From NCBI GenBank assembly GCA_017440085.1, contig JAFSHW010000038.1, positions 8,245-72,244 of the forward strand: 64,000 nucleotides of DNA, read 5' to 3'. The stretch is from Clostridia bacterium (GTDB taxonomy: Bacteria > Bacillota > Clostridia > Oscillospirales > UBA644). The translations under genes were made by a program, and so were the position numbers. The notes beneath the pieces are model-generated. The model did no database searches, had not been told where the DNA came from, and saw only the letters and a list, made by a program, of their open reading frames with translations. How positions within the stretch are numbered: the first letter of the stretch is position 1; the number at the start of each line of letters is the position of its first letter. This document shows, one piece after another, positions 6,264 to 49,693 of the stretch.

Positions 6264-7358
6264 TTGGAATCTAGAGACGATCTTTCATTGGCGTACACTC
6301 CGGGTGTAGCTCGCCCCTGCCTTGAAATTCAAAAGAATATAAATAAAAGCTACGAGTTGACAAGACGCTCGAATTTGGTAGCCGTAATTACCGACGGCAC
6401 GGCAGTTTTGGGCTTAGGAGACATCGGTCCGGAAGCGGGAATGCCCGTTATGGAAGGAAAATGCGCTCTTTTCAAGGCGTTTGGAGACGTGGACGCTATT
6501 CCTCTTTGCGTTAAATCGAAGGATGTTGACGAAATCGTTCGCACCATTAGTCTTATTTCGGGAAGCTTCGGCGGCATAAATTTGGAAGATATTTCAGCCC
6601 CCAGATGCTTTGAAATTGAGAAAAAGCTAAAAGAATGCTGTGATATTCCCATTTTCCACGATGACCAGCACGGCACGGCGGTGGTGGTTTTGGCGGCGAT
6701 GATAAATGCGGCAAAGGTTACGGGCAGAAAATTAGATGAAATGACAATCGTAATCAACGGCGCAGGAGCTGCAGGACAGGCAATTGCGAAACTTCTTTTG
6801 ACAGCTAACGTGGGTGACCTTATTCTCTGCGACAAAAACGGAATTATTTCTGATACTGAAATTGAGCCGGACTCCAGAAGAGCGATGGCAAGAATTACCA
6901 ATAAAACAAATAAAATAGGACTTTTGGCTGATGCACTCAAAGGGGCGGATGCGTTCATAGGCGTTTCTGCGGCAAATTTGGTAAGTGAAGAAATGGTTCG
7001 CTCAATGGCTAAAGACCCAATAATTTTCGCAATGGCTAACCCCAGCCCTGAAATTATGCCGGAAAAGGCGAAAAATGCAGGTGCAAAGGTTGTGGGAACG
7101 GGAAGAAGCGACTACCCCAATCAAATCAACAACGTTTTGGTCTTTCCCGGAATTTTCAGAGGAGCGCTTGACGTTCGTGCAGCGGACATTAACGACCAAA
7201 TGAAGCTTGCAGCAGCTTACGCCATTGCAGAATTGGTTACGGAGGACAAACTCTCCCCCGAATTTATTATTCCATCTGCGTTGGACAGCAGCGTTGTTAA
7301 AGCAGTAGCCCCTGCAGTTGCAAAAGCGGCAAGAGACAGCGGCGCGGCTAGAATATAA
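6264..7358 (+). CDS. NAD(P)-dependent malic enzyme (the uninterrupted part; the natural ATG at 6189 is separated from it by an in-frame TAG at 6216-6218)
   Basis: DLSLAYTPGVA, FHDDQHGTA and the GAGAAG Rossmann motif. The region upstream in the same frame reads MDYSEVSLQ*HSEWKGKIEVICRVPLESRDD, which is the normal malic-enzyme N-terminus. Confidence 0.85.
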   Translation: MESRDDLSLAYTPGVARPCLEIQKNINKSYELTRRSNLVAVITDGTAVLGLGDIGPEAGMPVMEGKCALFKAFGDVDAIPLCVKSKDVDEIVRTISLISGSFGGINLEDISAPRCFEIEKKLKECCDIPIFHDDQHGTAVVVLAAMINAAKVTGRKLDEMTIVINGAGAAGQAIAKLLLTANVGDLILCDKNGIISDTEIEPDSRRAMARITNKTNKIGLLADALKGADAFIGVSAANLVSEEMVRSMAKDPIIFAMANPSPEIMPEKAKNAGAKVVGTGRSDYPNQINNVLVFPGIFRGALDVRAADINDQMKLAAAYAIAELVTEDKLSPEFIIPSALDSSVVKAVAPAVAKAARDSGAARI

Positions 7359-7362
7359 TAAT

Positions 7363-7392
7363 AAACCCGACTTGAAAATCAAGTCGGGTTTT
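7363..7392. terminator. bidirectional hairpin terminator (malic enzyme side)
   Basis: Stem acccgacttga / tcaagtcgggt with a 3-nt loop, flanked by an A-run and a T-run. Confidence 0.65.
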
Positions 7393-7402
7393 ATTGATAC
7401 AA

Positions 7403-7432
7403 AAAATCCTGCGGAACAATCCGCAGGATTTT
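7403..7432. terminator. bidirectional hairpin terminator (adhesin side)
   Basis: Stem aaaatcctgcgga / tccgcaggatttt with a 4-nt loop. A-run on the plus strand gives a U-run for the minus-strand transcript. Confidence 0.65.
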
Positions 7433-7449: not shown

Positions 7450-10400
7450 TTAAGCCTTTTTCTTTTTGAAAACTGCAATACTCAAGAATCCAAAGATAAA
7501 TCCAAGTGCAATCATTACGAATCCAATGCTGTCTGTGGTTCCGGGGTTCACAGGGTCATCGGGATCTTCGGGATCTTCAGGGTCAACGGGAGGATCAACG
7601 GGAACGTCGGGGATGATAGGATCATCAGGATCTTCTGGGTCTTCAGGATCATCGGGAACGTAAGGTGTGTAATTGTAAATATTCTCGAATTCCGCAACTG
7701 CCATATCAACCTGAGTGCCGTCCAATGTGACGATAGTGTTGATTCTGTTACCGCCGCCAAGGTAAACGTAAACAGTGATAGTATGTTCAACTCTGCTGTA
7801 TTCAACGTTTTCTCTGCCGCCGTTTACTTCGTACATCTTATAAATATACGTATGACCAATGTCAGACTCGCTGAACATCAAGCTGAAAGCTGCCAAACCG
7901 TCTTTGCCGGAAGTAGCTCTGTAAGTTCTGCCTTGAGTTACGTTGTAAAGCACGAATTCAAAGCCTTCGGGTCCGATTACTTCGGTGCCAACGTTCTTAA
8001 CCGTCTTATGAGCGAGAACGTTCATAACTACGGGAGAAGGAGCAGGTGTGTAGTAATTTACAAACTTAATTCCGTTTGCAGGAGCGTGATTGCTTCCCTT
8101 TGTAATTACGGGAACGCCCGCTACAAGCTGACCTGTTCCGTCGTCGGAAACATCAATGGAAACGTAATAAACACTTCTATCGTAAGTAACGCGAGCCATA
8201 GGAACGGAAGTATCTTCCATAACCACGAAGTAATAAGTCTTAGGTTCTGTGAGGGAAATATTTCCAAAGCTGAATGAACCGTTTGCGCTGTTATAAGCTG
8301 TCTTGGGAGCGATTTCGTTATTGATAGCGAAGTTACTGTCTGCTGTATAAAGCATAAATCTGAATTCGCTATTGCCGAGGATTCTGCCCCAAAGCTCTTT
8401 TACACCGCCGATAACGGTTGAGGTTGCCGTAGGCTGATACTTATTAGTAAAGTTGAGGCCTTCAACGCTCTGACCTGTGGGGCCACCGGCGCCACCGAAG
8501 TCAGTCTTTCCATTGGAATCTTCAACCCAAACGAATGCATCGATATAATCAGTATCACCACGAACGACAACTTTAATCTTGTATTCGTTGCTATCGTACA
8601 CGATGCCGTTAATTTTTTGACCTGCATACTTTTCTTTAAGAACGAAGTAGTAAGTCTGGCCTACGTCTTCCGCTGTGCAAACAAGAGTCATTCCGTATTT
8701 ACCGCCAACTTCGTTTGCAGTTGTGATAAACGCACCACCGGTTATTTCGTATTTATCGTTTGCGGGGTAAAGTTCGAACGTGAAATCTCCGGGGTTGAAC
8801 GCTTTATCAAAGAATTTCTGACCTTCGAAGTAAATGACGTATGTGCCATTGAAAGTATTGGTGAAGTCAAGACCTGAAATTGTTACGTTATCAGGGTCAA
8901 TTACAGTATAACCACTGTTGAGTGCCGCACCGTCAGAACCGAATTTCTGAACGAAAAGCTTAGCGGATGCTGTGCCGTCTTCATTATCAATAATTTCAAC
9001 GGATACGCGGTATTCATTAGTATCAGTAACTATCAAATTGTTTTGAACTGCAGCTTCTTTAATTACGTAGTAATCAATATTTCCAATGTCATCAAGGGTA
9101 ATATTGGAATAATCAAGGGAGAAGCTGTATGCACCGTTGATATTCTGAGCAGTAACAGGAGTTACGTTTTCAGTAGCATAATTGGAATCTGTCTTGTAAA
9201 GCTCAAATGTAAAGGAATTATCAGAGAAAGGAATGTTGTAAATTTTATTACCTGCGAGAGTGATTGAGATATTTCCGCTTACGGAATATTCGTTTTTAAA
9301 GTCGATACCGTTGAGCGCAATATTTTCATTTACTTTTGAAGTAAATTCGCCATCGCCAATCTTTACGGAAGCCTTTACTTTACCGTCTCCGTTATCTTCA
9401 ACCTTAACGGTAACGTGGTATTTAGTTTCATCATACGAAACGCCGCCTAAAGTTCCTGCTTCTTCTTCGATTACGTAATAATATGTATTGCCAACGTGAG
9501 TTTCATCGTAAGCAAGCTCAAATTTAAACTCGCCAAGGAACTGGTCGTTAACTGTGTAAGTTTCAACCTTGCTGTATCCGTTTTCTACTGCATTTGCAAA
9601 TGTGGAATCAGTTTCATAAAGTTTGAAGCTGAATTTACCTGCTTCCAAAACTTTGCCGATAAGAGTCTTCGTACCTGAAAGTGTTACGTTTACGTTGCCC
9701 TTAACAGTATAGGTATTTGTGAAGTCGAGATTTTCAAGCTCTGCACCTGAAACTTCGGAAGCGGTTGCTTCAATTCCACCAAATCCGTTATCTTCCACAA
9801 CAACTGTAAGAGTATAAATCTTTGAGTCGTATGTGATACCGTCTATTGCCTGCGAAGCGTTTACTTCTTTAATGGTGTATTCATAAGTTCCGATGTCATC
9901 TTTGCCGTAGTTGAAGGTGTAGCTCCAAGTGCCGTTTGCAAGAATATCTACGGTACTGAGTTTATCGTTGCCTTTGTAAATTTCTACCTTGAAGTCGCCG
10001 TCTTCGAAAGTCTTATTAAAGGACTTTTCGCCCCCAACAGTTACGGAATCAGCCGCATTTTCAGAAACAGCATAGGTATTTGTGAAGTTGAGTTTTTCAA
10101 TCTCTGCACCTGAAACTTCGGAAGCGGTTGCTGTGATACCACCCTTGCCGTCATCTTTAACTTCAACCTGAATTTTGTATTCCTTACTATCGTAAGTGAT
10201 ACCGTCTATTGTCTGACCTGCATTTTCTTCCTTAACTACATAGTAGTAAGTTTTATTTAAATCGTCTTTGGTGTAATTAAGAGCGAATGAATATTTCTTA
10301 TCAGCATCGTTCTTCACCGTTGCGGGAGTAGAACCATCTTTAATCGTGTAAGAATCATCATCAACGCTATAAAGCTGGAAAGTAAATTTATTTGCGCCAA

Positions 10401-13400
10401 AATCCTGATTGAAGGACTTTTCACCGCTGAGAATTACACTTGCCGAAGCATCGCCGCTTACTTCGTATGTATTCGTGAAGTCAAGAGCTGTTTCTGACTC
10501 AACTGTCTGACCGTTATCGGAAGTAACGGTTGCAGTTGCCTCAACGCCGCCTTCTCCGTTATCTTCGACTTTAACGGTTATCCAGTATTCAACGGAGCTG
10601 TATTTTATACCATCTTCTGTTGAACCTGCTTTTTCTTCTCTAAATACGTAGTAATAGGTTTTGCCCTCATCGGAAGGACCGTATTCAATGGAGAAGCTGT
10701 AATCGCCGTTTACATCATTTGTAATATCGTCGCGAACGAAAGTTAAATCATTGAAGTTCACGTCTGTGCTGTAAAGCTCAAACGTAAAGTCGTTTCCTTT
10801 AAAGCCTTTATTAAAGGTTTTGGTACCTGAGAAGATTACACTGTCAGAACCTGTGATTTCATAAGTATTCTGGAAATCAAGGCTTACGACCTCGTTAGTT
10901 CCGTCGGAAATGGTAACGGTCTTCTTGAGAGTTCCGTCGCCGTTATCTTCAATAATAACGGTAATATAGTATTCGTCAGAATCGTAATTGTATCCGCCTA
11001 CACCCTCGTTCTTTTCTTTAGCTACATAGTGGTAAGTGTTGATAGAATCTGCACCTGTGTAAGTAAGTTCAAATTCAAACTTACCGTCTGCTCCGTTCTT
11101 TACTGAATCAATAGCCGTTCCGCTGATTTCAAAAGCGGAATTTGCTTTGTAAAGCTCAAAAGTGAAGGGTTTATCAGTAAGAACGTTGTTAAGAGTTTTT
11201 GTACCCGGGAGAACAACGGTTACGTCGCCTAAAATGGTGTATGTATTTGCAAAGTTGAGACTTGTAATTTCGTTTGTTTCAGCAGGAGTTCCGTTATTAA
11301 CAGTTACTCTGGTTTTAATGCCGCCAACGCCGTTATCAAGAATTTCTACTTTGATTTTGTATTCATTATCATCATAGTCGTAGCCGCCTGCTCCTTCGTC
11401 AACTTCTTTAACAACATAGTAGTAGATTGAGCCTACCTTATCGGCAGAATACTGAAGTGTTTCAAATACGATTGCACCGTTAGTACCGTTGGTTTTAACC
11501 TGAAGAGCTGTTGCTCCGTCAGCAACGGTATATGTACTGTCAGTTTCGTAGAGTTCAAAAGTAAATTCCTTGCTTGAAGCAACGCTGTTAAGAGTCTTCA
11601 TACCAGAGAAATCTACAGAAGCGGAACCTGTTACCGCATAAACATTTGTGAAGTCAAGGCCGCTTGCAGAAGTTTTAGCGGAATCAATAGTAGCAACTTC
11701 AGTTGTTTCGGTAGCTACAACTGAAATAATTTCAGCAGAAATGCCGCCCAATCCATTATCAGAAACGAGAACTGTAACTTCATACTGCGCTTTATCGTAA
11801 GTGATACCGTCTATGGTTTCGCCTGCGTTAACCTCTTTAATGGTATAAACGTGCTGACCAATGTTGTTTTTGCCGTAGTTGAAGGTGTAGCTCCAAGTGC
11901 CGTTTGCAAGAATATCTACAGTATCGAATTTATCGTTGCCTTTGTAAATTTCTACCTTGAAGTCGCCGTCTTCGAACGTCTTGTTAAAGGATTTTTCGCC
12001 ACCGACAGTTACGGAATCAGCCGCATTTTCAGCAACAGCATAAGTGTTTGTGAAGTCCAAACCGCTGACAGTTATTGCAGTTTCTGTTCCGCTAACGACT
12101 ACGTTAGAATCGTTAACCGTGGCAGTAGCTTTAATTCCACCGTTCAAGTCGTCTTCTACAACCACTGTAAGAGTATATTCTTTTGAGTCGTATGTGATAC
12201 CGTTTACAGTTGTATTGGCATTCTGTTCTTTAATTGTATAAGTATGTGTGCCGAGATTCTCTTCAGTGTAGTTGAACATATAGTTCCAAATGCCGTTTGC
12301 AGAAATGTTTACAGGGGCGTTGACACCGGAAATTTCAACTTTGAAGTCACCGTCTTCAAAGGATTTATCGTAAGTCTTATTACCGCTGATTTCTACGGAA
12401 GCGTCACCGTCAACGGCATAAGTGTTAGCAAAATCAATGGAAGAAGTTGAAACATCTCCGGAAGATGTTGCTTTGTAGTATTTAACGTCAGTAGCAATAC
12501 CGCCCTCTCCGTCATCGGAAAGTGTTACGACAATGTGGTATTCAGTTCCGTCGTAAATAATACCTGCGTTAGTAGTGCCACCGTTCTTTTCTTTGATAAC
12601 GTAGTAATATTTAGTGCCGGAAGTATTCGTTACGTCAGCTTTTCCATATTCAAAAGCGAAGGAGAACTCTCCGTTAAGAGCAGAGGATGTGCTTGTCGTT
12701 TTAGGTGTTGAGCCGGAAACGTCAAAGGTTTCATCTGTCTGATAAAGGTCAAATTCAAATGCGCCGTATTCGAAAGCCTTAGGAGTACCATTATAGGTGT
12801 AAGTCTTATTGCCTTCGATTGAAACGGAAGCACTTGCATCGTCGCTGATACCGTAGATATTATGGAAAACTACGCCGTCCTGAGGAATTCCGTTAGAATC
12901 GTAAACGTGAATCGTTGCAACCAACTGCCCCAAATAGTTATCCACAACGTCAACACGAACGTGGTAAACTGATTCGTCGTACTTAATGCCTGGGATAGAA
13001 CCTTCAACTTCATCTACAATGTAATAGTAGGATCCTGCTGTAGAATAGTCAATCTGACCAAAGGTAAAGTCACCGTTTGCATCGTTAGTTGTTGATTCTT
13101 TAATGTTTTTAATTGCATAAGTGGAATCAGATTCATAAAGATTGAAAGTGAAATCACCGTTATAATCTGAAATAACCTTGCCCGTCAATTCTTTATCGCC
13201 GGGAATCTGAATGTTGGTGGGTGCTGCTGTGTAAGTGTTGACAAATGAAATGTCATCAGCATCAAGGTCTGCAGTAGCAACCAACTGACCGCCAATATCT
13301 TCAACAGTTACTATAACGTCATATTCAGCCGTAGAATAAGTGATTCCAAAGCTTGCGCCGCTGGTTTTATTTTCAGTAACGGTATATTTGTAAGTACCGG

Positions 13401-16400
13401 GCTCAGTGTAAGTTAATTCAGGGAAAGTGAACGCTGCTTTATATCCGCCATTTGCGCTTCCGTTTTCTGCTTTGTATTCATTTCCGTATTCATCTGTAAG
13501 AACGAAAGTGAATTCGTCGTTAAGAAGAACTCTGCCTGTAAGAGTCTTAGTACCGCTGATTGTGTACGTTGTTGCAACGGGAGCGTAAGTATTGTAGAAA
13601 GTAACTTCGTTACCTGCGGCATTTGCGATGCTGTAAGAAGCAGTAAGCTGACCATTAACGTCCGTTACTGTTACAATTACACGGTAAGTAGTTTTGTCGT
13701 AAGAGTAGCCTGTTTTTCCTTCGTCAACTTCTGTTATTGCATAAGCAAAAGTGCCAACAGTATCATAGCTAAAGGAAGCTTCTGTTGTGTATGTAGCATC
13801 AGTATAGAAAGTAACTTTTCCTGCTGCATTATTCGTGCCGTAAAGAACTCTGCCCGTAGCACTGAGATTGGAGTCGTATTCTGTAGCTACGAAATGGAAT
13901 TCGCCTGCTTCAAGAGCTTTACCTGTAAGATTTTTGTTTACGAAATCTATTTCAAGACTTTCACTTACGGGTTTATATTCGTTTGTAAATACGAGCTCAT
14001 TATCTGCATTCAAAAGAACATTATCGTCATTTACAACTTCAGTATAATTAACAGCCGCTTCAAGAATGATAGATGAACCATCACCGTTATCGCTAATAGT
14101 AATGTCTACTTTAACAATATCATCGCTGTAATCCATATTGGGAATAGAGCCGGATTTTTCTTTTATATAATAGGTAAAGGTCTGAGGATAAGTTGTATTT
14201 TCAACGTGATTGAAGACAAGGTCAATAAACCCTTCGCCGATTGCATCGGTAACGTCTTTATTTATAGATGCAAGTAATCCTCCAGCAGAAACAGGTGTCG
14301 TGCAAGCTTCGTCTTTATAAAGCTCAAATTCGTAGCCTGAATAATTTACTTTATCACTTCCGGAACTATTGATGAGTTCCTTTTGAATGGGAATTTCAAC
14401 AACTGCGGGAGTTTTTTCGTAAACGATATTTGTAAAGGAAACGTCAACGACCCAAGTATTGTTAACCTGTGCAAATTCTCTGCCTGAATGATCGGAATGA
14501 ACTTTTGTAATTTCAAGCTTGCCGTCCATATCCTTATCTTCAACCGTTACGGAGAATGTATGAACTGTAACGTCATAGTACATACCGTCAATGGTGTCGT
14601 CGGGTTTAACTTCTTTTATCTGATAAGAATATACGCCTGCTTTATCGTAATTTTCATTTTCAAGATTGAATTCAAAGGTTTTTTCAGTGTCATTGTAAGT
14701 TACGGTATCCGTACCTGCGTTTTCCCACGCATTTGTGGAAGCATTAAATCTTTCGATTACAAATGTAAATGAATAATTATCTTCCCAAGCAACCGGATTC
14801 TTTTCTGAATCAAGAAGATTTTTAGTACCCTTTACAATAAGATTTACAGGGTCAACCTTTCCGGGAACGTAATCATTAACTACGATTACGGAGGAAGTGT
14901 TATTTGCTCTGACCTCAACGATACCGTCTCCGGCTTCGCCATTATCAAGATAATATGCAGTAAAGCCTGCGCCGGGAGCAGATTCAACAACCGTTGCTAC
15001 TGTACCCTCGGGAAGTTCGAGAATTTGAATCTGGTCGTCATTCTTCAACGTAACGATGAACTGACCGTTTGAATCAACGTATACGGAAGAAACGGTAGAA
15101 TCTTTAGTTTGAGAAGCGTTAAAGGATTTATTTGCAACGTCTGTACCGCTGAGAGTTACAGTCATTGTAAAGGTTTTTTCTTCGGGGATTGAGAAAGAAG
15201 TTCCGAAAGGATGTGTGATTTCCTTACCGATTGTAAGGTGTCCCGTTTTTCTTTCGGAGTTTACGAAATCTATTTTAGAAATTTCGTTTGCTACAAGGAC
15301 TACTGATTCAGTTGAATCTTCTGCAACGTAATCTTTCGTTTCAATTTCAGTTACGGTAATAACCCAATTTGCAACCATATCGCCGATATAAAGAGTTTCA
15401 TCGGCTTTAAGTTCAACGGTTGCTTTTCCGCCGCTGAAAGTTACTGTTTTCGCAGTTTCCGCACCGTTTGCATCAATATGGAATGCTTCATAAGAGCCGT
15501 CAGCCGCACCCGTGATTTCAAATTCAAATGCAGTCGTGGGGGCAGCTACGCCGTCAGCCATTGTTTTTGTGATTTTAATACCTGTCTGGGGTTTTACCGT
15601 CAATTTACCGTTGTTACCAAGAGTTGCACCGACAACATAGTCGTAACCTGTGTCATTTAAGGAATGACCGGTAGCATCTACGTAAGGAACTTCAACCCAA
15701 GGAAGTGTTCCCGTTGCATTTGGCTCTTTTGAAACAATATCATATTCGCCCGTATGAACGTGAACGTAACCTGCGGGGATATACCAAGAACCGTCATCAT
15801 TCGGCTGAGCATCAGCCAAAACAGAGGAATGAATTTCGTGGTAGTGGTAAGTTACGGAATTTTCTGTATATATCGCTTTTCTGGAATAGCCTGAAGAAGG
15901 TTGGCTTCCCGTTGCGAGAGCTCCTGAAGTATTGGCATAAACCAAAGTATCTTCAGTAAAATAATATCTGTTGTTCTGTTTGGAAGGGTTAAAGTAGCTG
16001 TATGTATTTACTTTTCCGTAACCCACTGAATTGTCAACTTCGTACTGGTTGGAGTAAAAGCTTACATAACCGTCAGCCGTGTTTGCTGAAATATAATCCG
16101 CATCAACAACGTCGTTGATTGTGTATTCAGTAATTTCTTCATCAAGAGCCACTTCGTAAACCAAACGAATGGGTTTTGTTGCACCTGTAGCTTCAAGAGA
16201 TTCAACATCGCCGTTTTCATCCAAAGAAACGTTATAAGAAACAATAGGAAGAAGTGCCGCAGGAACGGCAAAAGTCATCATCTGTTCGCCTGTTGCGATA
16301 TTTTCGCGAAGTTGAACGATAATATACATCATATCTGTTTCTGAGGTTCCGTCGTCTACGCCAACCTGTCCGTAGAAGCCGTAGCATTTTACTCTGAAAG

Positions 16401-18063
16401 TAGCACCTGCGAGTTTTTCATCGGGAGTTCCGTCCCAATAGTCAAGGAAGTTACCGTTTGCATCAGCAAACCAACCGATATAGTTGGAATATTCAGTATC
16501 GCTGGTATAGCTGAGCTGACCGTCTGTATATGCGTTACCGAGAAGAGTTCTTGCAGTATCAACGTCTACGCCGATTCTGTTCTGAACTGCCCAAACAAGC
16601 TCGTCGCCTGCCGTAGTTGGGTTAGCCGCTGAACCGAAAGTTCCGTTTTCCAAACCTTCCGCAAAGGTTGCGCCTGTGTGAAGAACGCCGCCAAGGTAAA
16701 CGCCTTTGATATCGGTAACTTTCATATATTTACCAATTCTATCAACGAATGAAACGTAACCTGAAACGTCTTCACTGCTTCCAACCAAAGTTGGGTAATA
16801 TTTAGTCTGAAGCTGAATTTCAGCTACAATGTCTTCAAATGCGTCGGTAAGGGAATTTCCGCCGATTGAACTTACAGCGGCAGTATAATATCCATCAACG
16901 TAGTTTTTTGTAAGACCGTTCATTTTAGTAACGGTTACAGCAGGTCGAGGATTTCTTCCATCTGTTGCTGCTTGAACAGTAATCTCATCATCTTGGGACG
17001 CCTCATCCCACATAGTCCAGAAGTCGTTTACAGCTGTGGAAGCATTCGCTGAAGTGGGATTAAGAACGGACATTGCAAGGGCGTTATTATCAACACCGAG
17101 ACCAAGTGTATAGAAAAGAGGATCTGTGTTATATTTTGTTTTAATTTGATTTTTTGCGTAGGATAGGGTAAGCTGTGTTACAAAAGCGAGGGCCGCGCTG
17201 GGGGTAGAACCGTTACCTAAATTATACTGACCGGGGTTGGTATATGAGCTTGAACCCAAAGTGGGAGCACCGTCAGACATCAAAACTACAATAGGCTTAC
17301 GGTTTGTGGTTGCAGTATTTGAAGAGGCAGTAAGCTGCTGAATTGCAGAAAGAACACCCTTCTGGATATATGTAGCACCTACGACTTCAATTGACTGTGA
17401 AGTAGGAGCATTTCCATTGGAATTTCTAACGTCAGAGTCGATACCAACGTATTCATCGCCCCAATATTCAGTGTACGTGAGGTATTTTCCGTCACTGTCA
17501 GTAGTATATCTATCCAAAGGAAGAATAACTCTGGAAGCATTTTCATTGGTACTACTGCTGCTTGTGCCTGAATAGAGGGCTACTCCGATTCTTGAAGAGG
17601 AGTTCATTTCAAGAAGCGCCGCAATAGTTGCATTTGCAGCATCTACCAAATCCTCGGCAACGTCATTATTCCCTTGGTTATTATTCATTGAGCCTGAAAT
17701 ATCAAGAACGAGAATAGTATCCGTGGGAACGTCAGATTCGCCGACGATAGTCATATTTGAACCCATAGCAGAAAGCGCTACAAGAAAGCTATCATCTTCC
17801 ATATTGACAGTTGTATCAGGTCGATTACCAATAGTCATAACAGACTTATCTGTCCATACAGCGCCTGCGTTTTCCGTAGACAGAGTCTGACCGGACCCTA
17901 TATGGAAAAACTCCTGATAAGAACTGTAAGTTGAGGTATCCGCAGTAAGCGTGGCATTTGACTCCCCTACTGCAAAGCTAACGGCTGGAACTAAGCCCAA
18001 CGTCATTGCAGTGCTGAGAGCAAAGCTCATAAAGCGTTTTGCAAAACCCTTTTTAGATTTCAT
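7450..18063 (-). CDS. giant cell-surface adhesin: signal peptide, VWA/MIDAS domain, Cna-B-like domains, about 18 pilin-isopeptide-type modules, acidic Pro-rich stalk, C-terminal TM anchor
   Basis: ATG at 18063 is preceded by AAGGATGA. The ORF track starts at 18090. MIDAS DISGS lies at 17689-17703. Repeated modules have G-x-K...Y-Y-[IV]-x-E...F-x-N-x-Y. The C-terminus is PEDPEDPDDP...NPGTTD plus a 21-aa hydrophobic helix plus KKKKA. Confidence 0.85.
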   Translation of the reverse strand: MKSKKGFAKRFMSFALSTAMTLGLVPAVSFAVGESNATLTADTSTYSSYQEFFHIGSGQTLSTENAGAVWTDKSVMTIGNRPDTTVNMEDDSFLVALSAMGSNMTIVGESDVPTDTILVLDISGSMNNNQGNNDVAEDLVDAANATIAALLEMNSSSRIGVALYSGTSSSSTNENASRVILPLDRYTTDSDGKYLTYTEYWGDEYVGIDSDVRNSNGNAPTSQSIEVVGATYIQKGVLSAIQQLTASSNTATTNRKPIVVLMSDGAPTLGSSSYTNPGQYNLGNGSTPSAALAFVTQLTLSYAKNQIKTKYNTDPLFYTLGLGVDNNALAMSVLNPTSANASTAVNDFWTMWDEASQDDEITVQAATDGRNPRPAVTVTKMNGLTKNYVDGYYTAAVSSIGGNSLTDAFEDIVAEIQLQTKYYPTLVGSSEDVSGYVSFVDRIGKYMKVTDIKGVYLGGVLHTGATFAEGLENGTFGSAANPTTAGDELVWAVQNRIGVDVDTARTLLGNAYTDGQLSYTSDTEYSNYIGWFADANGNFLDYWDGTPDEKLAGATFRVKCYGFYGQVGVDDGTSETDMMYIIVQLRENIATGEQMMTFAVPAALLPIVSYNVSLDENGDVESLEATGATKPIRLVYEVALDEEITEYTINDVVDADYISANTADGYVSFYSNQYEVDNSVGYGKVNTYSYFNPSKQNNRYYFTEDTLVYANTSGALATGSQPSSGYSRKAIYTENSVTYHYHEIHSSVLADAQPNDDGSWYIPAGYVHVHTGEYDIVSKEPNATGTLPWVEVPYVDATGHSLNDTGYDYVVGATLGNNGKLTVKPQTGIKITKTMADGVAAPTTAFEFEITGAADGSYEAFHIDANGAETAKTVTFSGGKATVELKADETLYIGDMVANWVITVTEIETKDYVAEDSTESVVLVANEISKIDFVNSERKTGHLTIGKEITHPFGTSFSIPEEKTFTMTVTLSGTDVANKSFNASQTKDSTVSSVYVDSNGQFIVTLKNDDQIQILELPEGTVATVVESAPGAGFTAYYLDNGEAGDGIVEVRANNTSSVIVVNDYVPGKVDPVNLIVKGTKNLLDSEKNPVAWEDNYSFTFVIERFNASTNAWENAGTDTVTYNDTEKTFEFNLENENYDKAGVYSYQIKEVKPDDTIDGMYYDVTVHTFSVTVEDKDMDGKLEITKVHSDHSGREFAQVNNTWVVDVSFTNIVYEKTPAVVEIPIQKELINSSGSDKVNYSGYEFELYKDEACTTPVSAGGLLASINKDVTDAIGEGFIDLVFNHVENTTYPQTFTYYIKEKSGSIPNMDYSDDIVKVDITISDNGDGSSIILEAAVNYTEVVNDDNVLLNADNELVFTNEYKPVSESLEIDFVNKNLTGKALEAGEFHFVATEYDSNLSATGRVLYGTNNAAGKVTFYTDATYTTEASFSYDTVGTFAYAITEVDEGKTGYSYDKTTYRVIVTVTDVNGQLTASYSIANAAGNEVTFYNTYAPVATTYTISGTKTLTGRVLLNDEFTFVLTDEYGNEYKAENGSANGGYKAAFTFPELTYTEPGTYKYTVTENKTSGASFGITYSTAEYDVIVTVEDIGGQLVATADLDADDISFVNTYTAAPTNIQIPGDKELTGKVISDYNGDFTFNLYESDSTYAIKNIKESTTNDANGDFTFGQIDYSTAGSYYYIVDEVEGSIPGIKYDESVYHVRVDVVDNYLGQLVATIHVYDSNGIPQDGVVFHNIYGISDDASASVSIEGNKTYTYNGTPKAFEYGAFEFDLYQTDETFDVSGSTPKTTSTSSALNGEFSFAFEYGKADVTNTSGTKYYYVIKEKNGGTTNAGIIYDGTEYHIVVTLSDDGEGGIATDVKYYKATSSGDVSTSSIDFANTYAVDGDASVEISGNKTYDKSFEDGDFKVEISGVNAPVNISANGIWNYMFNYTEENLGTHTYTIKEQNANTTVNGITYDSKEYTLTVVVEDDLNGGIKATATVNDSNVVVSGTETAITVSGLDFTNTYAVAENAADSVTVGGEKSFNKTFEDGDFKVEIYKGNDKFDTVDILANGTWSYTFNYGKNNIGQHVYTIKEVNAGETIDGITYDKAQYEVTVLVSDNGLGGISAEIISVVATETTEVATIDSAKTSASGLDFTNVYAVTGSASVDFSGMKTLNSVASSKEFTFELYETDSTYTVADGATALQVKTNGTNGAIVFETLQYSADKVGSIYYYVVKEVDEGAGGYDYDDNEYKIKVEILDNGVGGIKTRVTVNNGTPAETNEITSLNFANTYTILGDVTVVLPGTKTLNNVLTDKPFTFELYKANSAFEISGTAIDSVKNGADGKFEFELTYTGADSINTYHYVAKEKNEGVGGYNYDSDEYYITVIIEDNGDGTLKKTVTISDGTNEVVSLDFQNTYEITGSDSVIFSGTKTFNKGFKGNDFTFELYSTDVNFNDLTFVRDDITNDVNGDYSFSIEYGPSDEGKTYYYVFREEKAGSTEDGIKYSSVEYWITVKVEDNGEGGVEATATVTSDNGQTVESETALDFTNTYEVSGDASASVILSGEKSFNQDFGANKFTFQLYSVDDDSYTIKDGSTPATVKNDADKKYSFALNYTKDDLNKTYYYVVKEENAGQTIDGITYDSKEYKIQVEVKDDGKGGITATASEVSGAEIEKLNFTNTYAVSENAADSVTVGGEKSFNKTFEDGDFKVEIYKGNDKLSTVDILANGTWSYTFNYGKDDIGTYEYTIKEVNASQAIDGITYDSKIYTLTVVVEDNGFGGIEATASEVSGAELENLDFTNTYTVKGNVNVTLSGTKTLIGKVLEAGKFSFKLYETDSTFANAVENGYSKVETYTVNDQFLGEFKFELAYDETHVGNTYYYVIEEEAGTLGGVSYDETKYHVTVKVEDNGDGKVKASVKIGDGEFTSKVNENIALNGIDFKNEYSVSGNISITLAGNKIYNIPFSDNSFTFELYKTDSNYATENVTPVTAQNINGAYSFSLDYSNITLDDIGNIDYYVIKEAAVQNNLIVTDTNEYRVSVEIIDNEDGTASAKLFVQKFGSDGAALNSGYTVIDPDNVTISGLDFTNTFNGTYVIYFEGQKFFDKAFNPGDFTFELYPANDKYEITGGAFITTANEVGGKYGMTLVCTAEDVGQTYYFVLKEKYAGQKINGIVYDSNEYKIKVVVRGDTDYIDAFVWVEDSNGKTDFGGAGGPTGQSVEGLNFTNKYQPTATSTVIGGVKELWGRILGNSEFRFMLYTADSNFAINNEIAPKTAYNSANGSFSFGNISLTEPKTYYFVVMEDTSVPMARVTYDRSVYYVSIDVSDDGTGQLVAGVPVITKGSNHAPANGIKFVNYYTPAPSPVVMNVLAHKTVKNVGTEVIGPEGFEFVLYNVTQGRTYRATSGKDGLAAFSLMFSESDIGHTYIYKMYEVNGGRENVEYSRVEHTITVYVYLGGGNRINTIVTLDGTQVDMAVAEFENIYNYTPYVPDDPEDPEDPDDPIIPDVPVDPPVDPEDPEDPDDPVNPGTTDSIGFVMIALGFIFGFLSIAVFKKKKA
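9901..10088. repeat. copy A of a 188-bp near-identical direct repeat inside the adhesin gene
   Basis: Hand alignment with 11869-12056 gives 176/188 identical. Confidence 0.85.
11869..12056. repeat. copy B of the 188-bp direct repeat (offset 1968 bp = 656 codons, in frame)
   Basis: Hand alignment with 9901-10088 gives 176/188 identical. Confidence 0.85.
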
Positions 18064-18170
18064 TTTCAAATCATCCTTTTCTATACACAATTTCGTTAAT
18101 ATACTATCAAAAAGTGCCTTCTACTTATTATAAATGGGCGCAGTCCGCCCAAGGGCACTTATACAGGGTA

Positions 18171-27817: not shown

Positions 27818-28720
27818 TCAAAATAAACTTTGCAAATGTTTAGCCTCTTTGTACTGCTTTATCCAGACCGCAGAAAAAGCGATTCCGAAAACGGAAACTG
27901 CGCACAAAAGAAACGCTGCAATAGGTGAAATATCGGAAGTTGCAGGGTTGAAATCCACGGGGATTTTTTCACCTGCAGAAACCAAGTTTGTGGAAGCCCA
28001 ATAATACGAGCCGTCTTCGTTTTCCACAAAGGTATGAGCGTAAACAGGCAGATACTTCTCAAACTTTCCGTTTTTCAAACTGTTGAAAATCTCCGAAGAA
28101 TCAGAGCTATTCTCATACAAAACATTTACGTTTTCGCCGCCGTTATAGCGGTTAATGTTGCCGTGAACCCAAAAGTTCGTCTTGTACTCTTGGCTGTAAA
28201 GGGCGTAAGAAACGTAGATGCGGACACCGTTTTCCGTTTCTTCCGTTTTAATCACGTTTTTATACACGCGGCAACCATTGTCACCGCCGCCGAAATGTGA
28301 ATTGATATAAATATATTCGTCGGTTGTCTCTTGGTAGAAAAGAGTTTTGCTGCTACCGTCGGAAATCTCGGGTCTGCCGCCGAAAAGAGAATCAAAACTG
28401 CCTTCTCCGAAAAGCTTTTCGCAAGCGGCAACGACTTCACTTTTGGCAATTCGCTGTACGTCGGGGTTATCTTCGGGGAGAGGATTTTCGTGCTCAACGT
28501 TTTCCAATTTTCCACTGCCAAGAAGCTCATCAAAAAGAATATCGTGGACATTGCGGAACAAAGAAACGTACTTTAAGTTTTCAACCGTAACGTCAGTGCC
28601 AACGTACGCGCCCTCTGGAACTTGCTCAAGCAGTTCCTCTGAGGAAACGGCTGCGAACGAGCAAAGGAAACAGGAAATCAAAAACAAAGCCGTTAATAAA
28701 ATTGATAAAGATTTTTTCAT
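27818..28720 (-). CDS. hypothetical secreted protein with C-terminal NPATSD motif, TM helix and basic tail
   Basis: N-terminal signal peptide. C-terminus is NPATSD-ISPIAAFLLCAVSVFGIAFSAVWI-KQYKEAKHLQSLF. Confidence 0.6.
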   Translation of the reverse strand: MKKSLSILLTALFLISCFLCSFAAVSSEELLEQVPEGAYVGTDVTVENLKYVSLFRNVHDILFDELLGSGKLENVEHENPLPEDNPDVQRIAKSEVVAACEKLFGEGSFDSLFGGRPEISDGSSKTLFYQETTDEYIYINSHFGGGDNGCRVYKNVIKTEETENGVRIYVSYALYSQEYKTNFWVHGNINRYNGGENVNVLYENSSDSSEIFNSLKNGKFEKYLPVYAHTFVENEDGSYYWASTNLVSAGEKIPVDFNPATSDISPIAAFLLCAVSVFGIAFSAVWIKQYKEAKHLQSLF

Positions 28721-28746: not shown

Positions 28747-29868
28747 TTAATCTGCAAGGAAATCATTTCTACCCAGAATATTTATGTATTCGGGGTCATA
28801 GTAATCATTGTAGGTTGCCCAAAGTGAACCGTCGGATTTTTGGACGAGAATAATAAATCTTGAACCGCAAATATAGGTAAAATCAAACACGTCGGCGAAT
28901 TTCTCAGCCTGCTTGATTGCATATTGATATGGGAAAGGCTCGTTGCCGATTTCATAGGGTGGTTCATTGAGGTCATTAGACACTTCAAGTTCGGGATATT
29001 CGCCGAAAATCAACTTGCCGTCAGCGGTAAGAGCTACGGGGAGTTTAAGTTCCGTACTTCCGCTATCAATTATGTCAATCATTACGACATTTTCCGGTGA
29101 AAATTCCGTACCGAAAGAAACTACAGAACCGTCATTTTTTAACCCTATAACAACGTTTTTGCAAACAGCAATATCTGCAATATCCGTCCATCGTTCGATT
29201 TCAGGGAAAACATCTTCAAGTTTTTCAAATTTAAGATTATAAAAGCTGATTGTCCCATCAGAATTAAGCCCTATCCATACGACAGTTTTATCATCCACCC
29301 ATAGACGAGTTGTTTTTACAGCATCTAATTCACGCATTTCCCCATATTGAAAATAAGCTTTTCCATTTTCGGTATATAAAATCTCACGCATTTCCCAGTC
29401 AGTTTCAATGTTAATCACTTTAGAAGTTTTTGAAATATCCTCAAAATCAAACACAACATACGGATGGTCTATGACTTGATAAAGATCAATAACACTTCCG
29501 TCCTCGCAGAAAACGAATCTTGAATTAGCAACATAAGACGCGTTTTCTATGGTTTCAGAAAATCTAAACACCGTACCGTTAGAATAATTCTTTTGCATTT
29601 CTATAACTTTACCGTCTATTACGGTGTATTCAGAATCCAGATATCTTTGTGTCTTGATTTGAAGCTCTTGTTTCGTGCCTTCAGTTTCAAAGGGTTCATC
29701 TTCAACCGGAGTTTGAATATCATCGGGAGTTTCATCACCCTTATCCTCTACGGGTAAATCGGGAGTATTTGGTTCATTTGGAGTTTCCGATGGGATATTT
29801 GAATTGCATGCGCTTAAAATTAACAATAATGAAATAGCTAAGATGAAAAGGGATTTGAGTTTTTTCAT
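28747..29868 (-). CDS. lipoprotein with RCC1-like beta-propeller repeats
   Basis: Lipobox LILSAC. Recurring motifs IGLNSDGTISF, IGLKNDGSVVSFG, ALTADGKLIFG and VQKSDGSLWAT. Confidence 0.5.
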   Translation of the reverse strand: MKKLKSLFILAISLLLILSACNSNIPSETPNEPNTPDLPVEDKGDETPDDIQTPVEDEPFETEGTKQELQIKTQRYLDSEYTVIDGKVIEMQKNYSNGTVFRFSETIENASYVANSRFVFCEDGSVIDLYQVIDHPYVVFDFEDISKTSKVINIETDWEMREILYTENGKAYFQYGEMRELDAVKTTRLWVDDKTVVWIGLNSDGTISFYNLKFEKLEDVFPEIERWTDIADIAVCKNVVIGLKNDGSVVSFGTEFSPENVVMIDIIDSGSTELKLPVALTADGKLIFGEYPELEVSNDLNEPPYEIGNEPFPYQYAIKQAEKFADVFDFTYICGSRFIILVQKSDGSLWATYNDYYDPEYINILGRNDFLAD

Positions 29869-29988: not shown

Positions 29989-31350
29989 TTATTTAATGGG
30001 CAAGAAAATATCAAACACAGCGCCTGATTCTCCGCCAGTCTTATTCCTTGCGTTCACTGCGCCGCCGTGGCTGACGACTACAGCTTTTGCGATTGAAAGC
30101 CCCAAGCCGTGCTTGCCTTTTTTGCCCTTGTAGAAGCGGTCAAAAAGGTGGGGCAAGTCGTCGTTATGAATGCCCGGTCCGTCGTCGGAAACTGTGAAGC
30201 AAACCCCCTTGGCTACGGGGCGAACCTCCACAACAACCTCGCTCTTTGCAAAGCGCAGGCAGTTTGAGATAATATTCGTCAACGCTACGCAGAAATTATC
30301 CACGTCACAGCGTACGTTCATTTCTGCAATATCACCCTTTGAAATAGTGATATTTCCCGAAACGGCAATACCCTGAACTCTGTCAATAGCCTCGTCAACT
30401 ATCTGCAATGTGGAAGCGTCTTCCACCACTATTGAATTTGCAGAAGTCTCCATTTTGGTAAGATACATAATATCTTCAATAATTTTTTCAAGGCGTGAAG
30501 TCTGGTCAAGAATCTCCGTGCAGATTTCTTCAGTATTTTCAAAAACACCGTCGCGCATACCCTCGGTATAGCCTCTGATTGACATAAGCGGCGTTCTCAA
30601 TTCGTGGGAAGCGTTTTGCAGGAAGATTTTTTGGCTGAGGTCGTATTCTTCCAAGCTCTTGGTCATTGCATCGAAGGCGTCCGCAAGTTCTCCAACCTCG
30701 TCGTCAGAATCAATTTTAATATTACAGTTGTAATTACGTTTTGCAAGCATATTCGCCTTCGCTTTCAGCTTTTTCAAGTTTAAGGTCAAAGTGCTTGAAA
30801 AAATCAGCGCAATACAAACAGTAAATAAAGCGGCAATCAGAACTGCCATTAAGTACAAAGAAAAAAGGGAACGGTCTATCCCGTATCTATCCACCTGCAT
30901 ATACAAAACGAGAGCCGTTCTATCCCCCGTATCCAAGGAATAAATATGGCGGACGTACAAGGCGTAGTCTCCCGTTACGTGCTTCAAGGCGTGAGCACCC
31001 TCAGTTCCGATTTTGGAACGGACCGCTGTCTGAAAATCCGATAAGGAAATAGACATTGAAGAGGAGTGGAAGCCAACGTCATAATTATCGTTAAGATACG
31101 CGGCAAAGGAGTAATCCTTTACGTTAAGCTCATTGAATATTTCCTTCACTCTCTGGGTTGCGAGAGGGCTGATATTTCTTGAAGTCAAGGTTTCAACCAG
31201 CTCTTCCGCATATTCCTGAAGCTGCTTATTTCCCTCGTTGATTATATACCCTGATGAGAAAAGAGAAATAAAGGTAATGGAAATGCCCGCCATCATAAAA
31301 ATGACGGCGGCATATGATAATATCAGCTTAAAGGTAATACTGCGTTTCAT
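29989..31350 (-). CDS. sensor histidine kinase (two TM segments, HAMP, HisKA, HATPase_c)
   Basis: H-box ASHELRTPL, N-box IISNCLRFA, G-boxes DDGPGI and GLGLSIA. Confidence 0.85.
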   Translation of the reverse strand: MKRSITFKLILSYAAVIFMMAGISITFISLFSSGYIINEGNKQLQEYAEELVETLTSRNISPLATQRVKEIFNELNVKDYSFAAYLNDNYDVGFHSSSMSISLSDFQTAVRSKIGTEGAHALKHVTGDYALYVRHIYSLDTGDRTALVLYMQVDRYGIDRSLFSLYLMAVLIAALFTVCIALIFSSTLTLNLKKLKAKANMLAKRNYNCNIKIDSDDEVGELADAFDAMTKSLEEYDLSQKIFLQNASHELRTPLMSIRGYTEGMRDGVFENTEEICTEILDQTSRLEKIIEDIMYLTKMETSANSIVVEDASTLQIVDEAIDRVQGIAVSGNITISKGDIAEMNVRCDVDNFCVALTNIISNCLRFAKSEVVVEVRPVAKGVCFTVSDDGPGIHNDDLPHLFDRFYKGKKGKHGLGLSIAKAVVVSHGGAVNARNKTGGESGAVFDIFLPIK

Positions 31351-31353
31351 AAA

Positions 31354-32070
31354 TTATTCCTTAGCAGGCTCAGAGGGGTCAGTAACCTTATATCCGTAGC
31401 CCCAAACGGTTTCGATTTTGAAATCCGTTGCGGCAGCGTCAAGCTTTTTGCGGATTCGCTTAACAAGGTCGTCCACAGCGCGGGTATCTCCGATATATTG
31501 GTAATCCCAAATATTTGTGAGAAGCTGGCTTCTGGTGAAAACTCTGTTTTTATTTGAAACCATAAAGAAAATGAAATCGTATTCCATTGCGGTAAGGTTG
31601 ATTTCCTCTTCCACTTCACCGCAAACCTTAACAACTCGGCGCTCTATGGGGAAAATTTTAATATCACGGCAGGAGTAAGTGTTTGCATTCTTATCGCCCT
31701 GCATACCGTCGATTCTGCGGAAAACGGCTTTAACTCTTGCAACCATTTCCCTGGGGGAGAAGGGCTTTGGAATATAATCGTCTGCACCCATTTCAATACC
31801 CAAAATTCTGTCAAGCTCCTCGTCACGGGCAGAAACGATAATAATAGGCACGTTTGCCTTTTTTCGAACCTCGTTACAAAGCTCGAAGCCGGACATTCCG
31901 GGCATCATAATATCAATAACCAACATATCGGGCATAGCGGCGTTGAACCCTGCAAGGGCGTCTTCACCGTTTTCAAATTCAGAAACCGTATAACCCTCTT
32001 TTTCAAGGTAGGAACGAATTATCTGACGTATGTTTTTTTCGTCGTCAACTACGTAAATTGTTTTTGGCAT
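31354..32070 (-). CDS. OmpR/PhoB-family response regulator
   Basis: Receiver domain (VVDDE, DIMMPGMSG, SARDE) and winged-helix C-terminus (ETVWGYGYK). Confidence 0.9.
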   Translation of the reverse strand: MPKTIYVVDDEKNIRQIIRSYLEKEGYTVSEFENGEDALAGFNAAMPDMLVIDIMMPGMSGFELCNEVRKKANVPIIIVSARDEELDRILGIEMGADDYIPKPFSPREMVARVKAVFRRIDGMQGDKNANTYSCRDIKIFPIERRVVKVCGEVEEEINLTAMEYDFIFFMVSNKNRVFTRSQLLTNIWDYQYIGDTRAVDDLVKRIRKKLDAAATDFKIETVWGYGYKVTDPSEPAKE

Positions 32071-49009: not shown

Positions 49010-49693
49010 CTATTCATTAAGTCTGAAGCTTATTTCCGTATACAAGGATGAGATAAAACCAACAACCTGTGATACAAGGTAGAAAACAAGCACTGCAATA
49101 AAGATAATTACCAAAATACCTACAATTGAAAGAATTGCGGTAGCGATAGCTTTTGAAACTGAATACTGGTGTGTAACCATCATTCCGAGGAACACCATAC
49201 CGTAGCACCAAACAAAGCTGAAGCCAACTATGAATACGTAAATGCTTTCTTCTTCCAATGATACGAAGTTACTGATAGGTACCAAGAGGAAGTTGCAGAT
49301 AGTCATTGGCAACGTTGCAAAAGCTGTTGCGCAGAAGATGTCTTTAAGGCTTCCGTCACCGTCCATAAGAGAGGTGAAGCACCAGTTTGCGATGGTGAAC
49401 AAAAGGAATGGAGCTACTGCTTTGAAGACTTCCATAAATACGTTCAAATAGAGCTGTTCGCCGGTACTTTCAGTAAACAAGTAACCAGTGAGCTGTCTCT
49501 TAACGATGGAAGAAAATGCAAGCATAACCAAGAGGAAGATTGAACCGGAAACAGTTCTTCTTTTAGGGTCGTTTTTCAAATCGAAAAATCCGTCAATGGG
49601 GTGAGCAAGAATGTAAAAAGCGTATTTAAGACGTTTAAACATTTCTACTGTGCCCGCGCCGAATTTTTTAAGGCCGGAACTTATTGACTTCAT
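49010..49693 (-). CDS. Yip1-domain integral membrane protein
   Basis: HPIDGFFDLK followed by five TM helices. The start overlaps the stop of the NHL gene by 1 nt (TAATG). Confidence 0.6.
   Translation of the reverse strand: MKSISSGLKKFGAGTVEMFKRLKYAFYILAHPIDGFFDLKNDPKRRTVSGSIFLLVMLAFSSIVKRQLTGYLFTESTGEQLYLNVFMEVFKAVAPFLLFTIANWCFTSLMDGDGSLKDIFCATAFATLPMTICNFLLVPISNFVSLEEESIYVFIVGFSFVWCYGMVFLGMMVTHQYSVSKAIATAILSIVGILVIIFIAVLVFYLVSQVVGFISSLYTEISFRLNE

Follow-up and report, generated by a model that had tools for sequence, protein, structure and literature searches.

A variant of the clostridial xPxTGD sorting signal on a giant adhesin of an uncultured gut Clostridia bacterium, with a class-B sortase pair as the likely enzymes

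Introduction

The stretch of DNA analysed here, called the window below, comprises 64,000 nucleotides (positions 8,245 to 72,244 of contig JAFSHW010000038.1 in assembly GCA_017440085.1, Clostridia bacterium, order Oscillospirales) and encodes a giant adhesin that ends with the hexapeptide NPGTTD, a hydrophobic helix and the basic tail KKKKA. Since this is the layout of a sortase substrate without an LPXTG motif, the locus raises the question whether the C-terminus is a sorting signal of a separate kind, a variant of a known one or a plain membrane anchor, and which enzyme would act on it. A reading of the letters alone (the original prediction) had grouped it with the C-terminus of an unrelated secreted protein under the motif N-P-x-T-[ST]-D and had assigned both to a divergent sortase or another C-terminal processing enzyme encoded elsewhere. 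Our analysis argues with good confidence that NPGTTD plus helix plus KKKKA is a cell-wall sorting signal for a class-B-type sortase, with NPATSD and NPDTAD on two other proteins of the same genome as further examples.

Results

The giant adhesin and its C-terminal signal

The adhesin gene occupies positions 7450-18063 of the reverse strand and encodes 3,537 residues from the ATG at 18063. The longest open reading frame (ORF) at this locus starts at TTG 18090 (7450-18090, reverse strand, a frame of 3,546 residues), but the ATG is favoured because the cluster representative P0005, with 100% identity, has the same length of 3,537 residues. The protein begins with a signal peptide, MKSKKGFAKRFMSFALSTAMTLGLVPAVSFA (17971-18063, reverse strand), recognised by eye in the translation by its basic N-region, hydrophobic core and A-x-A-like end. 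According to Pfam, it continues with one VWA domain, DUF7601 and 18 FctA (Spy0128-like isopeptide) domains, followed by an acidic proline-rich stalk, VPDDPEDPEDPDDPIIPDVPVDPPVDPEDPEDPDDPV (7549-7659, reverse strand), which stands immediately N-terminal to the motif and is presumed to be a wall-spanning spacer, and by the putative sorting signal. Codon arithmetic places NPGTTD at 7531-7548 of the reverse strand, with the predicted cut between its two adjacent Thr residues. In the translation, it is followed on the same strand by a 21-residue hydrophobic helix, SIGFVMIALGFIFGFLSIAVF (7468-7530), as membrane-retention segment and by KKKKA (7453-7467) and the stop codon (7450-7452), i.e. 7450-7467 for tail and stop. 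The C-terminus thus reads ...DPEDPDDPV-NPGTTD-SIGFVMIALGFIFGFLSIAVF-KKKKA, with the motif 26 residues from the end.

Two unrelated carriers and enrichment of the motif before C-terminal anchors

The second carrier in the window, P0002, is a secreted protein of 300 residues (27818-28720, reverse strand) whose translation shows a signal peptide at its N-terminus and whose fold was not recognised, as Pfam returned no significant domain on it. Its motif NPATSD (27932-27949, reverse strand) is preceded by VDF and followed by a hydrophobic helix, ISPIAAFLLCAVSVFGIAFSAVW (27863-27931), and a basic tail, IKQYKEAKHLQSLF (27821-27862), which together span 27821-27931 of the reverse strand; the distance from motif to C-terminus is 37 residues. 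Adhesin and P0002 have no Pfam domain in common. With P0002 as query, only one homologue was retrieved, P0124 (77% identity), in which NPATSD is kept while helix and tail have diverged; one homologue makes the conservation of the motif visible and a family analysis impossible. The third carrier is a secreted protein of 162 residues encoded on contig C25, which ends with ...NE-NPDTAD-VNLIFYAAAAVTFTAALLLIS-RKRFKQK and has its motif 28 residues from the C-terminus. All three carriers of this genome begin with a signal peptide, recognised by eye in the translations from a basic stretch followed by a hydrophobic core and an A-x-A-like end, and in all three a Pro/Thr motif precedes a hydrophobic segment of 15-25 residues and a Lys/Arg tail, less than about 45 residues from the C-terminus.

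The own assembly (G000; 760 kb, 38 contigs) was scanned for the motif in all six-frame ORFs of at least 60 residues. NP.T.D occurs six times, and three of these occurrences lie immediately before a C-terminal hydrophobic segment with a basic tail (binomial P ~9e-6, with a deliberately loose definition of an eligible position). Translation and scan thus confirm the layout and position of the adhesin signal as originally described, its recurrence in the unrelated P0002 and the enrichment of the motif before C-terminal anchors that the original prediction implied. No canonical LPXTG was found among the C-terminal anchors of this genome. The sequence 'LPQTF...GRKKK' on contig C7, considered as a further signal, was dropped, since its carrier is a multi-pass membrane protein.

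In this genome, at least two large secreted proteins end with a helix and a basic tail but lack the motif; these are presumably plain membrane anchors. Since such anchors exist, the motif is a separate feature and not an automatic by-product of an anchor. By the same token, the organism uses uncleaved anchors, which favours an alternative explanation in which the C-termini of the three carriers are plain type I membrane anchors and NPxTxD is an unprocessed juxtamembrane feature such as a helix cap, a glycosylation motif or a turn motif. Motif-free proteins with a helix and a Lys-rich tail are encoded at 49693-51321 of the window (reverse strand) and, outside it, at C31:908-3220 and C38:15544-18075. 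One of them, which may be a solute-binding protein tethered to the membrane, adjoins ORFs for possible ABC-transporter permeases.

Homologous adhesins bear xPxTGD at the same position

When the last 347 residues of the adhesin were used as query, 197 relatives were retrieved, for the most part giant VWA/FctA proteins from uncultured Clostridia. Among the homologue C-termini examined, 113 bear a motif at the aligned site, just before a helix and a Lys/Arg tail, with Pro in 106, Gly after the Thr in 98 and Asp as the next residue in 106 (for example SPQTGD, NPGTGD, NPKTGD, TPVTGD and IPQTGD). The few homologues without Gly have motifs such as PPDTSD, SPDTSD, SPQTND, SPSTAD and PPKTAD. When 49 tails were aligned with MAFFT, Thr and Asp were invariant, Pro was present in more than 90%, and NPGTTD, NPATSD and NPDTAD shared columns with xPxTGD. 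This column-for-column alignment implies that the window motif is xPxTGD with the Gly replaced, hence a lineage variant of the clostridial signal and no separate kind. Closer to the window, NPGTTD is retained in P0009, an orthologue of the adhesin with 73% identity, and across orthologues with 73-77% identity all six motif residues are unchanged while helix and tail differ. In the substrates of relatives, the motif is directly preceded by Pro/Glu/Thr/Ala-rich linkers similar to the adhesin stalk.

The xPxTGD form is known from C. difficile, whose housekeeping class-B sortase SrtB cuts (S/P)PxT↓G in substrates with SPKTGDETQ... and SPKTGDSTN... (PMC4155245), among them CD2831 and CD3392 (PMC4155245, PMC5569036). 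The invariant Asp is consistent with work on B. anthracis SrtB, in which removal of the Asp after NPKTG abolishes most of the activity (PMC11987632). A mere juxtamembrane feature of an uncleaved anchor would not be expected to coincide exactly in position with the PxTGD sortase motif of homologous adhesins.

The signal across the genus, the family and the order

The genomes of 16 species of the genus were surveyed with a profile of the 49 tails, which is dominated by Gly, and 54 distinct signals were compiled from the returned loci and 40 further sequence stretches that we read; the tallies are hence tallies of profile matches and not of complete proteomes. The residue after the Thr is Ala in 23, Ser in 22, Thr in 3, Gly in 3 and another residue in 3 of the 54 signals. 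Asn comes first in 44 and Asp occupies the second position after the predicted cut (P2') in 50, typical examples being NPKTAD, NPSTAD, NPGTAD, NPETSD, NPKTSD, NPTTSD, NPSTTD and IPGTSD. In this genus, Gly after the predicted cut thus appears almost wholly replaced by Ala, Ser or Thr, with the Thr before it and the P2' Asp maintained. On these sequences, the genus signal is best written N-P-x-T-[A/S/T]-D and that of the family P-x-T-x-D; in the family's other genera, the residue after the Thr can also be Ala, Ser, Asp, Asn, Thr or Tyr. The earlier N-P-x-T-[ST]-D was correct in that the motif is shared and precedes the helix, but too narrow, since Ala is the commonest residue after the Thr.

The share of Gly after the Thr climbs with distance from the window lineage, according to counts that were made by hand and comprise few signals per genome. 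Gly was found in about 1-3 of 47-49 signals in genomes with a sortase of at least 50% identity to that of the window genome, in 3/10 in the two species of the genus that diverge most (G014 and G006), in about 9/37 in other genera of the family and in 8/12 in five genomes from other families of the order, compared with the 98/113 of the adhesin homologues across Clostridia. An aromatic residue follows the Thr in a few signals from other genera or families of the order (SPSTFD, SPQTYD; G025, loci L109 and L121, and G018, locus L144).

The carriers in the genus include FctA pilin-like proteins, CBM9-like proteins, giant adhesins and small proteins of unrecognised fold, and all carriers read have a signal peptide and a Pro/Thr/Glu/Ala-rich linker just before the motif. 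If NPxTxD were an unprocessed feature beside a membrane anchor, invariance at P, T and D over dozens of unrelated proteins and 16 species, next to a variable helix, would not be expected. The signals come in at least two flavours, one with T-A-D and a very conserved helix, the other with T-S/T-D and helices that vary. The former is found in a multi-copy family of secreted proteins of about 350-430 residues with repetitive Pro/Glu/Ala/Thr linkers, in which the signal NPxTAD-VSVLFYALAAxSAIGGxSVFKRK is near-invariant and its helix far more conserved than the T-S-D helices (for example L041 on G009:C3, L036 on G010:C47, L049-L052 in G007 and L054-L064, with at least four copies in G007). One member of this family that was read has no Pfam match and a related protein of 281 residues is CBM9-like; a signal like the NPxTAD-VSVLFYALAA type is also present in one genome (G019) of another genus of the family.

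Curated models of sorting signals

With TIGR01167 (LPXTG_anchor, cut-off 15.9 bits), the adhesin scored 11.9 bits and P0002 gave no match. TIGR03063 (srtB_target, the sortase B sorting domain; cut-off 18.15 bits) matched neither signal of the window, and NF033846 (Rumino_NPXTG, cut-off 23.5 bits) had no match in the window genome at E <= 1. Within the genus, some relatives (NPKTSD, IPGTSD) pass LPXTG_anchor with 18.7-20.1 bits, an NPKTAD signal reaches 12.2 bits on srtB_target, and Rumino_NPXTG is above its cut-off at three sites in two genomes (two with xPQTGID, one with NPSTDD). A search of the genus with the LPXTG model yielded no strong match (best 20.9 bits), and most matches coincided with P-x-T-x-D signals; the additional loci from this search that were read had a PxTG-type motif or none, and no LPXTG.

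The sub-threshold scores of both window signals, together with the fact that cleavage of the signals is itself inferred, speak for membrane anchors without processing. On the other side, this explanation would leave the only sortases of the genus, described below, without a recognisable substrate, as the LPXTG model found nothing strong in the genus and the additional loci read had no LPXTG. Taking both sides into account, we regard plain membrane anchoring of the three carriers as unlikely and prefer to see their C-termini as sorting signals.

A conserved pair of divergent class-B sortases

Two adjacent genes with a sortase domain, both above the Pfam cut-off, are located outside the window on contig C1 (C1:71264-74064, loci L001-L003). 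The first encodes a lipoprotein-type protein of 526 residues with Big_2-like Ig repeats, a Gly/Ser/Gln-rich linker and a sortase domain with a long insertion. The second encodes 373 residues, with an N-terminal membrane helix, an acidic proline-rich stalk of about 120 residues and a sortase domain; this stalk resembles the stalk of its presumed substrate. For both proteins, the best NCBIfam match is the class B sortase model TIGR03064, with 110.7 and 83.9 bits. A comparison with the PDB, which covered the 373-residue protein alone, returned class-B sortases in 15/15 matches (B. anthracis, S. aureus, C. difficile, L. monocytogenes, C. perfringens and S. pyogenes). The best match is B. anthracis SrtB (1rz2/2oqw), whose ILYGH, TLSTC and GRLVVHA, with the catalytic His, Cys and Arg, align with IIYGH, TLSTC and NRVAVHA of the 373-residue protein.

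Both genes are conserved as neighbours throughout the 16 genomes of the genus and also in much of the family. Under the Pfam sortase model, nearly all of the 16 have no sortase besides this pair, extra sortases being present in G014 and G015 only. The genus thus combines a single kind of sortase with what is essentially a single kind of tripartite signal, and the two class-B sortases of contig C1 are the likely enzymes for the NPxT[A/S/T]D carriers, as far as genome content can tell. These results support the original view of an NPxT motif of the kind used by class-B sortases, through the positional match to xPxTGD and the class-B pair in the genome, and they support the view of a substrate set of a divergent sortase encoded elsewhere, through the two adjacent divergent enzymes on C1 and the genus-wide motif.

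The suggestion of another C-terminal processing enzyme found no support, as the exosortase model (PF09721, Exosortase_EpsH) matched 0/16 genomes of the genus, of which eight have a completeness of 90% or more; an exosortase-type system was rejected on this ground. More generally, processing by a non-sortase enzyme (an exosortase, an archaeosortase, a rhombosortase-like enzyme or another protease) could be argued from the difference between the motif and LPXTG, from the unusually conserved helix of some T-A-D signals, which is like that of dedicated sorting domains, and from the very incomplete assembly, in which an enzyme could go unseen. G000 has 0.76 Mb, compared to 1.8-2.6 Mb for species of the genus, and its rating of 61.6% completeness looks too high, so that the absence of a gene from this assembly means little. 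Class-B sortases are, however, present in all 16 of these genomes, and the motif is, by position, the homologue of a proven sortase motif (PMC4155245). We therefore consider a non-sortase enzyme very improbable and retain the class-B pair as the candidate enzymes.

Gene surroundings of the two carriers in the window

Directly upstream of P0002, a predicted lipoprotein of 373 residues with an LSAC lipobox is encoded at 28747-29868 (reverse strand), which has no Pfam or NCBIfam match. Beyond it, on the same strand, follows a two-component system with a histidine kinase (29989-31350) and a response regulator (31354-32070). Between the adhesin gene and the convergent malic-enzyme gene (6264-7358, forward strand), there are two G+C-rich hairpins with T/A runs at 7364-7392 and 7402-7432, which look like back-to-back terminators of the two genes.

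Discussion

The motif, its enrichment before C-terminal anchors, its positional equivalence to PxTGD, its conservation in the genus and the sortase inventory are established and provide the frame for a model of anchoring. In this model, the precursor would be exported through the Sec pathway by means of its N-terminal signal peptide and then be held in the membrane by the C-terminal helix and the basic tail. The cysteine of the TLSTC motif of one of the two membrane-tethered class-B sortases would attack the bond after the Thr, i.e. N-P-x-T↓[A/S/T]-D, and the Thr carboxyl would be passed to an amine of a peptidoglycan stem peptide. The adhesin would thereby become covalently linked to the wall, with its acidic proline-rich stalk extending across it. 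The cut is placed after the Thr by analogy with NPQT↓N of S. aureus, NPKT↓G of B. anthracis and PxT↓G of C. difficile (PMC8225981, PMC4155245).

Several points weigh against this interpretation. Cleavage, the exact cut site, the acceptor and the acting sortase of the pair are inferred, and the window's signals are sub-threshold or unmatched in TIGR01167, srtB_target and Rumino_NPXTG. Both sortases of contig C1 score below the equivalog cut-off of TIGR03064 (153.75 bits); they are hence divergent, and their specificity is not transferable from characterised enzymes. Sortases and substrates are unlinked on the chromosome. Within the genus, sortase and signals are both present in 16/16 genomes, which makes co-occurrence statistics impossible, and at the level of the family one genome (G018, 85% complete) has signals and no match to the 373-residue sortase at E <= 1e-5. 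Finally, the assembly amounts to about one third of a genome typical of the genus, and with such an incomplete inventory further enzymes could escape view.

The domain content of the adhesin suggests a possible different role for the same signal, namely pilus-type polymerisation of FctA proteins by Thr-to-Lys linkage, with a second sortase for the final attachment to the wall. The adhesin and several other substrates in the genus are built of FctA/Spy0128-like pilin domains, the class-B sortase Spy0129 of S. pyogenes polymerises the FctA-type pilin Spy0128 (PMC3019223, PMC11231552), and such a division of labour would suit a genome with a sortase pair and a genus with at least two flavours of signal (T-A-D with its conserved helix, T-S/T-D with its variable ones). 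Most carriers, by contrast, are not pilin-like (CBM9-like proteins, small proteins of unrecognised fold, P0002), the substrates are scattered and not encoded in pilus operons with the sortases, and a protein of 3,537 residues that has a VWA head of its own resembles a stand-alone fibre. Polymerisation thus seems improbable, and direct anchoring of the carriers to the cell wall by class-B-type sortases is still the reading that we favour.

With regard to the specificity of these enzymes, it is conceivable, and at present a tentative proposal, that the pair represents a long-stalked class-B type with a specificity shifted to N-P-x-T↓[A/S/T]-D, in which the P2' Asp would be key and Gly disfavoured. 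Perhaps the two flavours, T-A-D with its near-invariant helix and T-S/T-D, would be split between the two enzymes.

Among characterised systems, SrtB of C. difficile is similar in being a class-B general anchoring enzyme of Clostridia with scattered adhesins and surface enzymes as substrates and with an xPxT-x-D motif, a helix and a basic tail; homologues of the window adhesin bear exactly its xPxTGD form. The system described here differs from it by Ala, Ser or Thr in place of Gly, by Asn in place of Ser or Pro at the first position and by two adjacent, long-stalked sortases, both scoring under the class-B equivalog cut-off, where C. difficile has one compact enzyme. SrtB of B. anthracis and its substrate IsdC (NPKTGDE) have the N-P-x-T core and the conserved P2' Asp in common with it (PMC11987632, PMC3208642), but IsdC has Gly, serves heme uptake and is encoded in an operon with its sortase, whereas the present substrates are diverse, unlinked and non-NEAT. 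Class-B signals with Asn, Ser or Ala after the cut are known from S. aureus (NPQTN), L. monocytogenes (NAKTN/NPKSS) and B. anthracis BasL (NSKTA) (PMC8225981, PMC3208642). These signals belong to one or two iron-uptake substrates per genome, in contrast to a general signal of a genus, in which Thr is also found at the leaving position and Asp almost always comes next. The Rumino_NPXTG model (NF033846) describes a C-terminal N-P-x-T with helix and basic tail in related gut and rumen Clostridia and differs in that it expects Gly. A precedent for an FctA/Spy0128-like protein combined with a class-B sortase and a non-LPXTG motif is given by Spy0129 and Spy0128 of S. pyogenes (PMC3019223), where small pilins encoded beside the sortase are polymerised, as opposed to a stand-alone adhesin of 3,537 residues encoded far from the sortases.

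It is already known that class-B signals are degenerate after the cut and that the following Asp matters; the findings will thus be of little surprise to specialists and overturn nothing. The class-B consensus of Comfort and Clubb from 2004 reportedly reads NP(Q/K)(T/S)(N/G/S)(D/A), which would literally include NPKTSD. A literature search for motifs of the NPxTAD, NPxTSD or NPxTxD type returned unrelated proteomics papers only, with no sortase context. The original claim that T-[ST]-D is undescribed therefore holds for the motifs as such, which had no match in a sortase context in the literature searched, but not for their components, as both a residue other than Gly after the cut and the P2' Asp have precedents in class B. 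Three features appear to be undescribed: a general signal of a whole genus in which Ala, Ser or Thr has taken the place of Gly nearly throughout, Thr right after the cut, and the link of such a signal to a paired, stalked type of sortase.

For the organism, these results provide likely substrates for its paired class-B sortases. For this uncultured gut Oscillospiraceae genus and, more loosely, its family, they point to P-x-T-x-D with Ala or Ser instead of Gly after the cut as the anchoring signal. As a consequence of this replacement, many surface proteins, among them the adhesin of 3,537 residues, escape the LPXTG, srtB_target and Rumino_NPXTG models; the predicted surface proteomes of these gut bacteria would be undercounted, and the signal described here improves their annotation. 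If the enzymes truly prefer Ala, Ser or Thr followed by Asp, they would be candidate tools for sortase-mediated ligation with a recognition orthogonal to LPXTG. If both the shifted specificity and the split between the two enzymes were true, the genus would harbour a natural pair of orthogonal non-Gly sortases, and a large group of surface proteins overlooked by current annotation models would be defined in gut Oscillospiraceae.

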